Shown piece after piece: positions 9,802 to 11,346 of a stretch of DNA of 64,000 nt; position 1 is the first letter of the stretch; each line of letters starts with the position of its first letter. This DNA comes from Escherichia coli. Its GTDB lineage: Bacteria; Pseudomonadota; Gammaproteobacteria; Enterobacterales; Enterobacteriaceae. Position numbers and translations under genes: made by a program. The stretch lies in NCBI RefSeq assembly GCF_001677475.2, contig NZ_CP015229.1. The stretch is one strand, 5' to 3'. The notes below the pieces were generated by a model. That model was not told the DNA's origin, made no database searches, and was given only the letters and a program-made list of their open reading frames with translations.

Positions 9802-10044
9802 TTATGCAACCACTCGAAGTGTAGGTTTCTTATGTTGTGTAGGTTTATTGCCATTTCGCCACTCAGGAAACACCTGATCCATCATAACCGCGTTAGTTTC
9901 ATCAATCAGCTTTAGAGTCTTTCGTAATGCGGCGTTATCAGCTTTAAGCGATTTAATCTCTGAATCCATCTTAGCCATACGCTCTTTCATGTTGGTAATT
10001 TCTAACATCAGATTACCCAGAAATTCTTTGTTTTGATTAATCAT
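9802..10044 (-). CDS. Hypothetical coiled-coil protein (80 aa)
   Basis: ORF with heptad-like region MKERMAKMDSEIKSLKADNAALRKTLKL; last gene of a leftward 3-gene cluster. Confidence 0.45.
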   Translation of the reverse strand: MINQNKEFLGNLMLEITNMKERMAKMDSEIKSLKADNAALRKTLKLIDETNAVMMDQVFPEWRNGNKPTQHKKPTLRVVA

Positions 10045-10059
10045 AGAATTACCCCTCTA

Positions 10060-11046
10060 TTAAGCTGCGTATGCGTAGGCGCTGTAGTTGGTGTCGTAAA
10101 TCGCGTCATGTAATGCCATGTGTGCTTCGCGGATCTCGTCTTCGTTTACTTCAATCTCTTCTTGTTCTTCTTCGGTATCTTCCCAGCTAGTTTTGAATTT
10201 AGTCATAAAGTTGGTGCGCAGAGTTTCAAAGTTGGTAACTGGTGCGGATTCTGCTTCAACCGGAACCGGAACAACTACCGGATCAGCTTCTTGTTCTACT
10301 TCTTCACCGTTACCCCAGCGATAGTTAAGGAGTTCTTCATCAATGGATTTTTCTTCAACTGCTTTAACTTCAACCGCTGCTACTTCGAAAGTGGTTTCCT
10401 GTGCTGCCAGTTCAGCTTTCAGAGATGCGTTTTCAGCTTCCAGTTCAGCGATGCGTGCTTTCAGTGCTTCAACTTCGGAAGATTCAACCACTGCAACTTC
10501 TTCTTTAACTTCTTCAACTACTACCGGAGCAACTTCTTTCTGTGCTTCTTTTTTGCAGAAGAAGGAGGAAGTAACCTGTAATGCGTGGTTGTAGAAGGAA
10601 CCGCCTTTAGCGGTGTTAACAGTACCAGAAACATCTTTTACAGTGGATTCAGTAGCAACAGTACGGAAGCGTTTAGCAACTTCCTGGGTCTCTACGCCGT
10701 ATTCGTTGCGCTTGCTCTTGTGATGCATTACAGCACGGTAGCCGGAAGCAGTTTTAACAACAGCCAGATAGTAAGTTTCATCGGCTTTAACAGCACGAGC
10801 GAAGCAATAAACGGATTCACCTTCTACCAGTGTAGGTTTAACGTGACGTTTGTCGAAACGGTTAGTGATCTGCCATTCAGCACCGTCTTTGATGCCAGCA
10901 TTCTGACGCATTTCGGTCAGAGTCTTACCGGATACTACTTCAAAGGATTTGTCTTGTTTGCTTGCTTTACCTTCCATAACAGTAATGTTCAGTTTGCCGT
11001 TGGATTTAATAAACATGTTGAAGGTAATGCGCTTAGAATTTTTCAT
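10060..11046 (-). CDS. Hypothetical protein (328 aa): basic N-terminal domain, acidic coiled-coil C-terminal half
   Basis: ORF; C-terminal EVEALKARIAELEAENASLKAELAA and many E/D-rich stretches; no catalytic motif recognised. Confidence 0.5.
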   Translation of the reverse strand: MKNSKRITFNMFIKSNGKLNITVMEGKASKQDKSFEVVSGKTLTEMRQNAGIKDGAEWQITNRFDKRHVKPTLVEGESVYCFARAVKADETYYLAVVKTASGYRAVMHHKSKRNEYGVETQEVAKRFRTVATESTVKDVSGTVNTAKGGSFYNHALQVTSSFFCKKEAQKEVAPVVVEEVKEEVAVVESSEVEALKARIAELEAENASLKAELAAQETTFEVAAVEVKAVEEKSIDEELLNYRWGNGEEVEQEADPVVVPVPVEAESAPVTNFETLRTNFMTKFKTSWEDTEEEQEEIEVNEDEIREAHMALHDAIYDTNYSAYAYAA

Positions 11047-11163
11047 ATAAATACTCCTGAATACTCTGTGTTAGTTTTAATGTGTCATACTAAAAGCCTC
11101 CTTGCGCCAACAGGGAGGCTTTTTTATTTTTAAAGCCATCATATAATTCTCAGTGAAAGGTTA

Positions 11164-11346
11164 TTACCAGACGGTAGCTTCAATCTTCACTTTAATGTCA
11201 TACTTCTTTAAAAGTTTGTGGAAGGTTGATTGATCAATACCTTCACCTTTAAACCATTCACCCATCACTACATCAGGTGTCAGTTCAAAATAACGCTTTG
11301 CCATTTCTAAAACGATTTCACGAGTGAACTTAACAGGTCGTGCCAT
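11164..11346 (-). CDS. Hypothetical small protein (60 aa)
   Basis: ORF; first gene of the leftward cluster, followed by a hairpin at ~11094-11126. Confidence 0.4.
   Translation of the reverse strand: MARPVKFTREIVLEMAKRYFELTPDVVMGEWFKGEGIDQSTFHKLLKKYDIKVKIEATVW

Follow-up and report, generated by a model that had tools for sequence, protein, structure and literature searches.

The closest described counterparts of the locus reported here are replication initiators that bind arrays of repeats. In lambda O with ori-lambda, and in the iteron Rep proteins (P1 RepA, R6K pi, pSC101 RepA), the N-terminal part of the protein sets the specificity for direct repeats. The C-terminal part of lambda O is common to phages of different specificity, protein and repeats are exchanged jointly among mosaic relatives, and in plasmid basic replicons the repeats adjoin the promoter of the gene. 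Phased short repeats beside an operon promoter are also found in the ParR/parC system of plasmid R1, where about ten copies of an 11-bp repeat serve a protein with an N-terminal DNA-binding part and a C-terminal partner-binding tail, and with omega of pSM19035, which uses heptad repeats. The Mu repressor (c/Rep, operators O1-O3) acts on many short sites between divergent promoters and combines an N-terminal DNA-binding domain with a leucine-zipper-like oligomerisation region and a C-terminal tail; in the Mu/D108 heteroimmune pair, N-terminus and sites diverge together between related phages. Finally, in immI of phage P22 (arc - ant, with the antisense sar RNA) a small DNA-binding regulator is followed by an abundant protein of about 300 aa, and the hairpin between the two genes has the orientation of a terminator for the other strand.

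The locus that we describe resembles these systems in the respects listed, its DNA-binding and partner-binding parts being predicted, and departs from each of them in others. Unlike lambda O and the Rep proteins, to which its 328-aa protein has no sequence or fold similarity, it combines 11-bp repeats outside the gene (17-22 bp in those systems) with extreme codon bias and a long acidic coiled-coil half, has no DnaA boxes and no lambda P-like partner, and its role in replication is a predicted one. It differs from the ParR system in belonging to an integrating phage, in encoding a protein three times larger and in having no actin-like or Walker ATPase partner and no detected ribbon-helix-helix similarity. 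In contrast to the Mu repressor, the protein shows no homology to it, has a high predicted abundance, faces repeats that lie off the core promoters and comes from a phage that is not transposable. As for P22 immI, there is no Arc or Ant homology, the antisense promoter here is a weak and poorly conserved consensus match, and Ant binds no DNA repeats, unlike the prediction for the 328-aa protein.

Results

The window, by which we mean the whole 64,000-nucleotide stretch of DNA analysed, covers prpBCDE-codB of Escherichia coli with a 23-kb prophage inside codB, which was inserted by a serine recombinase and truncated by IS3; intact relatives measure 35 kb. The prophage lineage is present in 53 of 5426 complete E. 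coli genomes (about 1%), with type 1 (types are defined below) in 17, type 2 in 37 and both types in one, and one genome has two type 2 copies. Members were found too in Shigella, E. albertii and Salmonella. The lineage is poorly known: nothing relevant was found in the literature on the prophage, its attachment sites or its protein accessions, megablast of the three-gene cluster against phage and plasmid collections gave no match, and neither did an Rfam scan of positions 7800-15600. No replication or repressor family was recognised when a 35-kb intact relative was searched throughout, and these functions must therefore reside in orphan genes.

A preliminary description of the window had reported a leftward cluster of three genes, which are listed here with the parts of the largest one.

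9802-10044, minus strand: 80-aa gene, open reading frame with Shine-Dalgarno sequence; variable slot
10060-11046, minus strand: 328-aa gene, open reading frame with Shine-Dalgarno sequence
10060-10551, minus strand: acidic C-terminal half of the 328-aa gene, with coiled coil, acidic low-complexity stretch and C-terminal motif
10552-11046, minus strand: N-terminal domain of the 328-aa gene (residues 1-165), beta-rich and basic; proposed repeat-recognition (specificity) domain
11164-11346, minus strand: 60-aa gene, open reading frame with Shine-Dalgarno sequence; first gene of the leftward unit

All three exist as described there, each conserved and preceded by a Shine-Dalgarno sequence. Their dN/dS values range from 0.03 to 0.38 (0.03-0.35 for the 60-aa gene, 0.09-0.24 for the 80-aa gene), with one pair lacking any non-synonymous change, and on these sequence comparisons the genes are real and under purifying selection. 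The 60-aa and 328-aa genes constitute a core module that every member of the lineage has, and the accessory slots that truly vary are the third cluster gene and the gene at the left attachment end. The 80-aa gene is present in type 1 (54% identity in L004) and absent from type 2; in L003 its slot is taken by an unrelated reading frame of at least 137 aa that continues past the end of the locus, and in type 3 (L043) by a 333-aa protein with the tail PTLRLVA, similar to the tail KPTLRVVA of the 80-aa protein. The latter is basic, and its proposed coiled coil was recovered in part: coiled-coil-type matches exist, but they are weak only.

The 60-aa protein, kept in all relatives as two alleles, is small and basic (pI 9.1) and carries a helix-turn-helix-like motif at its C-terminus (GIDQSTFHKLLKKY). 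It has no Pfam, PHROG or NCBIfam match and is paralogous to an 85-aa reading frame at 14546-14803 (33% identity, E 8e-7) and to the C-terminus of a 200-aa reading frame at 14806-15408 (E 1e-3). The motif GIxxSTFHKLLKKY and the two paralogues in the phage suggest a helix-turn-helix protein.

The 328-aa protein is built as the preliminary description had proposed. Its N-terminal half (residues 1-165), a basic and aromatic-rich beta domain, has a pI of 9.8 and its C-terminal half a pI of 4.1, with a long helix predicted at residues 190-220, about where the coiled coil lies. The C-terminus bears the motif LHDxxYxTN[YF]S, followed by a YA repeat whose length differs from allele to allele. Types 1 and 2 share only the C-terminal part (30% identity over residues 137-322, E 1e-4). 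The gene is unbroken in the defective prophage of the window and frameshifted in the otherwise intact prophage of ETEC1739. A C-terminal -AA tail was considered as a ClpX degron and dropped: it occurs in types 1, 1b and 3 and is absent from type 2.

As previously noted, no structural or replication family could be recognised, and profile, PDB and fold searches gave no defence family either. Nothing was found for the 328-aa protein in Pfam, PHROGs, NCBIfam, PADLOC, PDB or AFDB. Its matches in the first four are coiled-coil noise only, the best in PADLOC (E 0.0056) falling on short acidic stretches and those to Phage_scaffold (PF06810; E 0.009 at residues 165-235, E 1.1 in type 2) within the coiled coil; the searches returned no clear homology to scaffold or SSB-type proteins. 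PDB sequence searches were negative, and a tblastn search of 50,697 phage records with the proteins of types 1 and 2 retrieved nothing. A phmmer search with the N-terminal domain against 1.84 billion cluster representatives retrieved only three real clusters, all enterobacterial, while word-indexed searches (with the 328-aa protein, P0123 and a profile) returned close relatives only and an IMG/VR scan near-identical E. coli prophages and nothing else. Profile searches showed no homology to helix-turn-helix/S24 or Mu repressor domains, and profile and fold comparisons no match to SSB or single-strand annealing proteins (OB fold, gp2.5, Erf, Red-beta, Rad52). AlphaFold2 performed poorly on the single sequence (pLDDT 46) and reached a pLDDT of 60 at best for the N-terminal domain with five sequences; at that model quality, no sequence or fold likeness to Rep, O, DnaA-like or other DNA-binding families was seen.

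The cluster adjoins a control or origin-like region, in agreement with the preliminary description, with promoters and an iteron array (see below) next to several structured elements.

9769-9794: distal hairpin with T-run on the plus strand; canonical terminator for the convergent TerS operon
11092-11123: GC-rich intercistronic hairpin between the 60-aa and 328-aa genes, with T-run on the plus strand only
11388-11402: terminator-like hairpin with T-run upstream of the 60-aa gene, conserved in L003 and L004
11347-11757, minus strand: leader of about 410 nt from the predicted leftward promoter to the 60-aa gene, a structured RNA with a terminator-like 3' hairpin
11532-11566 and 11605-11639, minus strand: two 35-bp repeats in the leader
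11743-11792: overlapping predicted leftward and rightward promoters, as consensus matches only
12124-12372: GC-rich mini-hairpins with C-GNA-G triloops, interleaved with GAAAGGGATT

A strong hairpin with a T-run had been thought to end the cluster. There is indeed a hairpin at 9769-9794, but the plus strand carries its T-run, and on that strand it folds at -19 kcal/mol (z -3.8); on the minus strand an A-run precedes the stem, UAUACUU follows it and z is -1.6. The intercistronic hairpin likewise folds on the plus strand (-19.8 kcal/mol, z -3.85), and four relatives, with protein identities as low as 36%, keep its stem and plus-strand T-tract unchanged, the loop being variable. A conserved antisense promoter facing this hairpin was proposed and discarded, the consensus match being weak and poorly conserved. 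The hairpins at 11092-11123 and 11388-11402 indicate that the cluster is not a simple uninterrupted operon. Of its three genes, the third is not conserved.

The leader folds at -101.5 kcal/mol (z -5.5). Binding of the 60-aa protein to its paired 35-bp repeats was entertained on a three-taxon correlation and given up when L005 broke it. The predicted leftward promoter, TTGACA-17-TATACT, agrees with 11 of 12 sigma-70 consensus positions (-35 box at 11787-11792) and the rightward one, ATCACA-17-TATAAT, with 10 of 12; type 2 phages have predicted leftward promoters at the equivalent site with 12 and 11 of 12. Four of the six C-GNA-G mini-hairpins of the 23-kb prophage fall within 12124-12372, and the equivalent region holds 5-7 of them, with different stems, in four of five relatives and one in the type 3 relative L043. 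The GAAAGGGATT motif, at 12182, 12255 and 12509 (the last on the minus strand), was found 15 times against 4.4 expected and is present in types 1, 1b and 2, the types searched. Mini-hairpins and GAAAGGGATT are likely to be further cis-acting origin or packaging elements.

To the right of the leader lies an array of iterons, given here with its outlying copies and the exchanged block that contains it.

11820-11997, plus strand: iteron (direct-repeat) array, about ten direct copies of AAACCTACACT spaced by 11, 22 or 44 bp
11728-12233: block swapped between types 1 and 2 (blastn, window and ETEC1739 versus UTME-12)
9818-9845, minus strand: two more type 1 iteron copies, within the 3' end of the 80-aa gene and in inverse orientation to the main array
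10829-10838: third extra type 1 iteron copy, inside the 328-aa gene

The array begins about 30 bp upstream of the leftward -35 box and 0.8 kb from the 328-aa gene. The type 1 iteron matches 11 times in the window versus 2.3 expected, a count reached by none of 100 shuffles. The array has the same position in every relative, and its sequence tracks the type of the large protein, whose N-terminal domain falls into four types among 37 related loci; by protein type, the arrays consist of AAACCTACACT, CCCTGCACTAA, TTTTGCCCCTGAA or CGGGGA every 11 bp. The association between protein type and repeat type is perfect (11 + 26 loci, zero exceptions) within a sample that represents one narrow lineage with many near-identical loci and few independent events (four or more types, four or more recombinant backgrounds). 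Types 1 and 1b are closely related and their repeats differ at two positions, and the type 3 array reaches up to 15-20 copies in a strict 11-bp register. Partial type 2 matches, taken at one point for a further type, proved to be IS3 disruptions.

Type 1 and type 2 phages are 87-95% identical across TerS, the 60-aa gene, the hairpin and the leader, and are non-homologous in exactly two separate blocks, the large gene and the iteron block. The latter spans the promoters, the iterons and about 230 bp to their right, and between it and the swapped protein gene lie 680 bp conserved at 92-95%. The 60-aa gene, TerS and Rha assort independently of repeat type. Other candidates for the repeat binder were discarded: each of the two 60-aa alleles is found with type 1 as well as with type 2, a type 1 and a type 2 phage have TerS proteins that are 99% identical, the variation of Rha does not follow type, and the association of a 156-aa protein fails in L004. 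Because the large protein always changes type with the repeat array, it most likely binds those repeats, and the covariation of its N-terminal domain with them argues for sequence-specific DNA binding that serves replication or control of the phage itself. We infer from this covariation that the 328-aa protein is very probably an abundant, sequence-specific repeat-binding protein. The extra iteron copies are kept in close E. coli relatives and not in L004, and they may be coincidental because all three encode the peptide KPT[LQ].

The large gene has the highest codon adaptation index (CAI) of every phage carrying it, above the capsid gene each time: 0.71 against 0.53 in the window, and 0.71, 0.70, 0.71, 0.64, 0.58 and 0.56 in six phages. 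High CAI and near-consensus leftward promoters fit a stoichiometric use on many sites and many genome copies.

Discussion

Our preferred reading, which we hold tentatively and at somewhat less than an even chance, is that the 328-aa protein initiates replication by binding to the phage origin, as lambda O and plasmid Rep proteins do to theirs. The fast-evolving, basic N-terminal domain would recognise about ten helically phased 11-bp direct repeats some 30 bp upstream of the protein's own strong predicted promoter, the coiled coil would dimerise or oligomerise it, and the conserved acidic C-terminal part with its terminal peptide motif would contact a partner. The complex of protein and repeats would serve as origin recognition and recruit the host replisome, which is proposed because genes for a helicase, primase or polymerase are absent from the phage. 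The 60-aa protein would then be a small helix-turn-helix-type regulator of the leftward unit and the 80-aa coiled-coil protein a dispensable accessory. By a similarly tentative assignment, which we judge plausible but short of probable, the 60-aa and 328-aa genes with the variable third gene make up the leftward arm of a control/origin region of a temperate siphophage.

The repeats are direct and same-oriented, in an 800-bp untranscribed-looking gap with conserved GC mini-hairpins that is bounded by divergent P_L and by a promoter-like site just upstream of the 156-aa gene. By analogy, the combination of a variable N-terminal domain with a C-terminal part and tail motif held in common follows the design of lambdoid O proteins, and the frameshift in ETEC1739 would be more easily tolerated in a replication gene than in a maintenance repressor. 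On the other hand, no DnaA box (at most one mismatch) was found at 11347-12629, which counts against an origin; AT-rich stretches exist, none of them directly beside the repeats, and no outstanding unwinding element is seen there. Known initiators are usually weakly expressed, and a CAI of 0.7 is unusual for one. An RNA-primed origin from the strongly structured leader could make a protein initiator unnecessary.

Joint exchange of protein and sites is equally typical of immunity modules, and the repeats are located where an upstream activator of P_L would bind; both observations weigh against the origin reading. An immunity or regulatory module, with the 328-aa protein as the lineage's main transcription regulator, is unlikely, though it deserves serious attention. 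By coating the repeats, the protein would switch on the leftward promoter of its own gene and prevent rightward (lytic) transcription, and the four protein/repeat types would define heteroimmunity groups, as the Mu/D108 repressor-operator pair or the lambdoid imm regions do. Such a role would suit a large gene transcribed opposite to the structural genes, repeats that start about 30-40 bp upstream of the leftward -35 box, the swapping of protein and sites as a cassette between otherwise near-identical phages, and a prophage in which no other repressor is recognisable; the order of N-terminal domain, coiled coil and C-terminal tail also recalls the established layout of the Mu repressor. However, no repeat lies within the predicted core promoters at 11743-11792, the first one starting at 11820-11824, the rightward operon probably has its promoter some 570 bp away, and all repeats are direct, none palindromic. 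A few-copy repressor would not be expected to show a CAI of 0.7 and consensus promoters, and the three paralogous small helix-turn-helix-like proteins are better candidates for such a function (repressor/Cro). The state of the prophages argues in both directions: the coexistence of types 1 and 2 in one genome and the unbroken gene in the window's defective prophage speak for immunity, whereas the two type 2 copies in one genome and the frameshifted allele of an apparently intact prophage speak against it.

The strict 11-bp register, with up to 15-20 copies in type 3, would also agree with an architectural or centromere-like complex on phased repeats, like that of ParR on parC of plasmid R1, in which the tail tethers phage DNA to the packaging machinery, a host filament or the membrane and the complex serves packaging or positioning rather than initiation. 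We consider this quite improbable. The coiled coil with its C-terminal peptide motif, the abundance implied by codon bias and the neighbouring GAAAGGGATT motifs and palindromes, which may be a cos site, are in its favour, but family searches revealed no partition NTPase in the operon or among the phage's other non-structural genes, the phage is maintained by integration, and a separate TerS exists that does not track repeat type.

The preliminary description had suggested an early-type cassette with anti-host, anti-defence or recombination functions. On such a view the cassette would be accessory, its product for example an acidic DNA mimic or a protein like SSB or an annealing protein, and the repeats would be associated with it by linkage only. 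In favour of this idea are the acidity of the C-terminal half, the dimeric coiled coil and the very high expression that is predicted, features also known from T7 Ocr or gp2.5, and the basic aromatic-rich beta domain could bind single-stranded nucleic acid. Against it, the PADLOC, PHROG, Pfam, PDB and AFDB comparisons gave no likeness to Ocr, ArdA, SSB, Erf, Red-beta or Rad52, the large gene belongs to the core module rather than to a variable slot, and its N-terminal domain covaries with the repeats. Moreover, the two swapped blocks stay together in all 37 loci although the conserved 60-aa gene that lies between them is freely recombined, so linkage alone is no explanation, and we regard the proposal as improbable to much the same degree as a centromere-like complex. 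Least probable is a role in the virion or its assembly, as a scaffold, decoration or head-fibre protein produced at capsid level, since such a role leaves the repeat covariation unexplained, the gene is apart from the late operon and on the other strand, the capsid is a protease-capsid fusion, a kind that usually supplies its own scaffold, and the weak Phage_scaffold matches (E 0.009 and 1.1) are coiled-coil noise, even if the CAI exceeds that of the capsid gene and a beta-rich N-terminal domain followed by a coiled coil recalls head-fibre layouts.

Returning to the origin reading and its nearest rival, the large proteins of types 1, 2 and 3 might represent a new structural class of repeat-binding origin protein, or else a new immunity switch, a possibility that we view as doubtful. 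In the former case, a 35-kb temperate phage would replicate wholly on host machinery without an O/P or Rep homologue, the N-terminal domain and the repeat array would act as interchangeable specificity cassettes, and the extreme expression level would reflect stoichiometric consumption. In the latter, the switch would be a protein filament over phased 11-bp repeats.

None of the replication or lysogeny-control genes of this lineage is recognisable, despite its presence in about 1% of complete E. coli genomes. With the repeat array tied to one orphan protein, what was a set of hypothetical genes becomes an origin or immunity module that can be tested, for which the four natural specificity variants are built-in controls. 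If confirmed, the module would provide a new DNA-binding fold and a new family of initiators or regulators, as well as orthogonal protein/site pairs for engineering, and it would mean that the key non-structural protein of an uncharacterised phage can be picked out by its codon bias.

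The cluster within its prophage

The window is E. coli chromosome in which prpE (5163-7049) is followed by a split codB, and the element between the two codB parts (7880-30900; ~23 kb, 40% GC) is a prophage inserted in codB by a large serine recombinase. Its features, in window coordinates, are as follows.

7473-7844: codB, 5' part
7922-8227, minus: 101-aa orphan
8528-9079: small terminase (TerS)
9100-9279, plus: hydrophobic ORF, 59 aa
9333-9506, plus: hydrophobic ORF, 57 aa
9802-10044, minus: 80-aa protein
10060-11046, minus: 328-aa protein
11164-11346, minus: 60-aa protein
11820-11997: repeat array inside the non-coding region, ~10 direct copies of AAACCTACACT spaced by 11, 22 or 44 bp
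12182, 12255, 12509 (minus) and 8417 (minus): copies of GAAAGGGATT
right of the three-gene cluster, before the 156-aa gene: non-coding region, 1.28 kb
right of the non-coding region: 156-aa acidic protein, then Rha-family protein
structural genes, in order: lambda-GpA-type large terminase, portal, protease-capsid fusion, tail protein, tail fibre
26329-27482: IS3-family transposase pair, followed by an endonuclease fragment
28012-29709, minus: large serine recombinase
30913-31818: codB, 3' part

The tail and lysis genes of this copy have been lost to the IS3-family element; IS3 copies also break this region in two more strains (loci L012 and L013). Intact relatives are siphovirus-type prophages of ~35 kb that occupy ycdX or hicB in other strains of E. 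coli, and the intact ETEC1739 prophage contains 0 genes matching any replication, repressor or partition family. Complete RefSeq E. coli genomes hold no copy of the window cluster above ~96% identity; the identical 328-aa protein is nonetheless recorded from 19 contigs, one of them of 5.50 Mb.

The slot adjoining the left attachment site varies, holding the 101-aa orphan here and, in related prophages (L005, 3044-4108; L006, 3169-3963), a GIY-YIG nuclease in one or an LprI-family lysozyme inhibitor in others. This slot is a better spot than the three-gene cluster to seek accessory or defence cargo. On the 3' side of TerS, relatives carry a single 94-aa membrane-like ORF in place of the two small hydrophobic ORFs.

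Genes, hairpins and leader

The three minus-strand ORFs lie exactly where the preliminary description placed them, with a ribosome-binding site ahead of each. Relatives conserve all three under purifying selection (dN/dS 0.03-0.38, except for one pair with zero non-synonymous change). The basic N-terminal domain and acidic coiled-coil half ascribed to the 328-aa protein are likewise correct, with a pI of 9.8 for residues 1-165 and 4.1 for residues 166-328 and a long helix predicted at 190-220.

The hairpin that had been taken, with its T-run, to close the leftward cluster is real (9769-9794), but the T-run lies on the plus strand, and the minus strand has an A-run ahead of the stem and no U-tract after it; the hairpin is therefore the terminator of the convergent TerS operon. 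The cluster is not one uninterrupted operon. Between the 60-aa and 328-aa genes stands a plus-strand-oriented hairpin (11092-11123), which is a strong terminator on the plus strand only and is invariant even in relatives with protein identity as low as 36%. A conserved terminator-like hairpin (11388-11402, minus) directly precedes the ribosome-binding site of the 60-aa gene. The leader from the predicted leftward promoter to this gene (11347-11757, minus) folds at -101.5 kcal/mol (z -5.5 versus shuffled sequence) and has no Rfam match; it may serve in attenuation or antitermination, or even be an origin based on RNA.

A weak plus-strand promoter-like site, TAAACA-18-TAGAAT (11010-11039), also lies within the first part of the 328-aa gene; it is not conserved in the relatives L003 or L004. 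It could yield an antisense RNA of ~85 nt across the 328-aa ribosome-binding site, similar to the sar RNA of P22.

The 60-aa protein is basic with a helix-turn-helix-like motif, and two paralogues accompany it in the phage: an 85-aa ORF (14546-14803, minus; 33% identity, E 8e-7) and the C-terminus of a 200-aa ORF (14806-15408, minus; 31%, E 1e-3). None of these three small modules has a Pfam match, and together they suggest a set of small regulators specific to this lineage. The third gene of the cluster is not conserved: one group of relatives lacks it, and in two further groups unrelated genes take its place. Here it encodes the 80-aa basic coiled coil, whose C-terminal tail PTLR[VL]V[AG] is also found on a 74-aa protein of L004. 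The tail PTLRLVA ends the unrelated 333-aa third gene product of type 3 phages (L043, 4814-5815), which has its own beta-rich N-terminal part and a coiled coil; such a tail looks like an interaction peptide common to these proteins.

Covariation of protein type and repeat type

About 30 E. coli genomes match the 60-aa gene without the 328-aa gene, and two of these, UTME-12 and MEI003, were compared directly. In both (type 2), a protein of 313-318 aa takes the place of the 328-aa protein (type 1: the window, ETEC1739 and L004) and aligns with it only from residue ~137 on (30% identity, E 1e-4), through the end of the N-terminal domain, the coiled coil, the acidic stretch and the C-terminal motif LHDxxYxTN[YF]S. 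The repeat array is in an unchanged position and reads TTTTGCCCCTGAA. Through TerS, the 60-aa gene, the hairpin and the leader, UTME-12 is 87% and 95% identical to ETEC1739 and 88-95% identical to the window, and each of these two is non-homologous to UTME-12 in just two separate blocks, the large gene and the repeat block. In L003 (type 1b) the N-terminal domain is 43% identical to that of type 1 and the repeat, CCCTGCACTAA, differs from the type 1 repeat at two positions, while L043 and L044 (type 3) combine a distantly related N-terminal domain with ~15-20 copies of a CGGGGA core in a strict 11-bp register. Protein type and repeat type never part in 11 annotated or assembled loci and 26 IMG/VR loci. 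On the simplest reading of these sequence comparisons, the N-terminal domain of the large protein would recognise the repeats.

Other products were rejected as the repeat binder: each of the two 60-aa protein alleles is seen with type 1 and also with type 2, one type 1 and one type 2 phage share TerS at 99% identity, Rha has no correspondence to type, and the 156-aa protein tracks type within E. coli, not in L004.

The array starts ~30 bp upstream of the leftward -35 box. Three extra type 1 repeats, inverted relative to it, sit within the 80-aa and 328-aa genes (9818-9827, 9836-9845 and 10829-10838, minus), where ~0.04 are expected by chance over that 1.2 kb. All three encode the peptide KPT[LQ]. 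Close E. coli relatives retain them, L004 does not; looping through secondary binding sites could explain them, or a codon coincidence.

GC stems of 4 bp with C-GNA-G triloops, the known hyper-stable DNA mini-hairpin motif, cluster at 12124-12372 (4 of the 6 in the prophage; for example CGGCgtaGCCG and GCGCgtaGCGC). Of five relatives examined, four (L003, L004, L007, L008) have 5-7 at the equivalent place, with different stems (GGGCgtaGCCC, CCCCgtaGGGG, GCGCgaaGCGC), and type 3 L043 has one. The motif GAAAGGGATT is enriched as well (15 found, 4.4 expected); it is kept regardless of repeat type (1, 1b and 2), with one exact copy upstream of the TerS gene, and may serve as a site for terminase (cos) or a host factor.

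Expression and homology of the large protein

With Sharp-Li E. coli weights, the CAI of the 328-aa gene is 0.71, compared with 0.53 for the capsid gene and 0.20-0.47 for all other phage genes. In the relatives tested the large gene is the top gene of its phage every time (0.70, 0.71, 0.58, 0.64, 0.56), so that it spans 0.56-0.71 against about 0.50 for capsid (window, L003, L004, L005, L007, L008, L043). Synonymous divergence is lower in the large gene than in neighbouring genes, and the leftward promoter candidates are near consensus (11/12 in the window; 12/12 and 11/12 in the type 2 phages). The phage therefore probably makes more of the 328-aa protein than of any other product. The C-terminus of the large protein is -AA in types 1, 1b and 3 and -SYCQ in type 2, and the count of YA dipeptides there varies among 328-aa alleles from SAYAYAA up to SAYAYAYAYAYAA (window 10060-10085).

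Searches with the 328-aa protein returned nothing significant in PHROGs, NCBIfam, PADLOC or Pfam and no protein-level match among 50,697 phage records, and thus neither a scaffold nor an SSB homologue, the two outcomes named beforehand as refuting the initial reading, nor any positive identification. Among 1.84 billion cluster representatives, just three clusters are related to the N-terminal domain; every one comes from prophages of Escherichia, Shigella or Salmonella with identical gene order.

Possible function of the protein/repeat complex

We tentatively favour, by inference, a complex in which the large protein on its repeats would act in origin recognition. The array consists of direct repeats in helical phase, it falls within an 800-bp gap that runs from the leftward promoter to a promoter-like site immediately ahead of the 156-aa gene, and it adjoins conserved GC-rich mini-hairpins whose stems differ between relatives. 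The large protein is also built like the lambdoid O proteins, which join a variable specificity domain to a common C-terminal part. Moreover, the phage must hold an initiator somewhere among its orphan genes, and loading at 10-20 sites per genome copy would justify heavy synthesis. Against origin recognition, the region has no DnaA box, no clear unwinding element adjoins the repeats, and initiators are not usually expressed so strongly.

Immunity regions typically show this cassette pattern too, which counts against an origin and in favour of the main alternative, a regulator or immunity protein activating its own promoter from the upstream array. We consider this rather unlikely, as the repeats overlap no core promoter and are all direct, and an otherwise intact prophage carries a frameshifted large-gene allele. 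An architectural complex like ParR/parC seems improbable. A structural (virion) role and the anti-defence and recombination roles first suggested for the cluster have no positive support.

The finding is thus real and more specific than initially proposed: the cluster forms the core module of protein/site specificity in an uncharacterised lineage of E. coli prophages, and at its centre stands an orphan protein, probably made in large amounts, that is a putative repeat binder and a candidate for the replication initiator.
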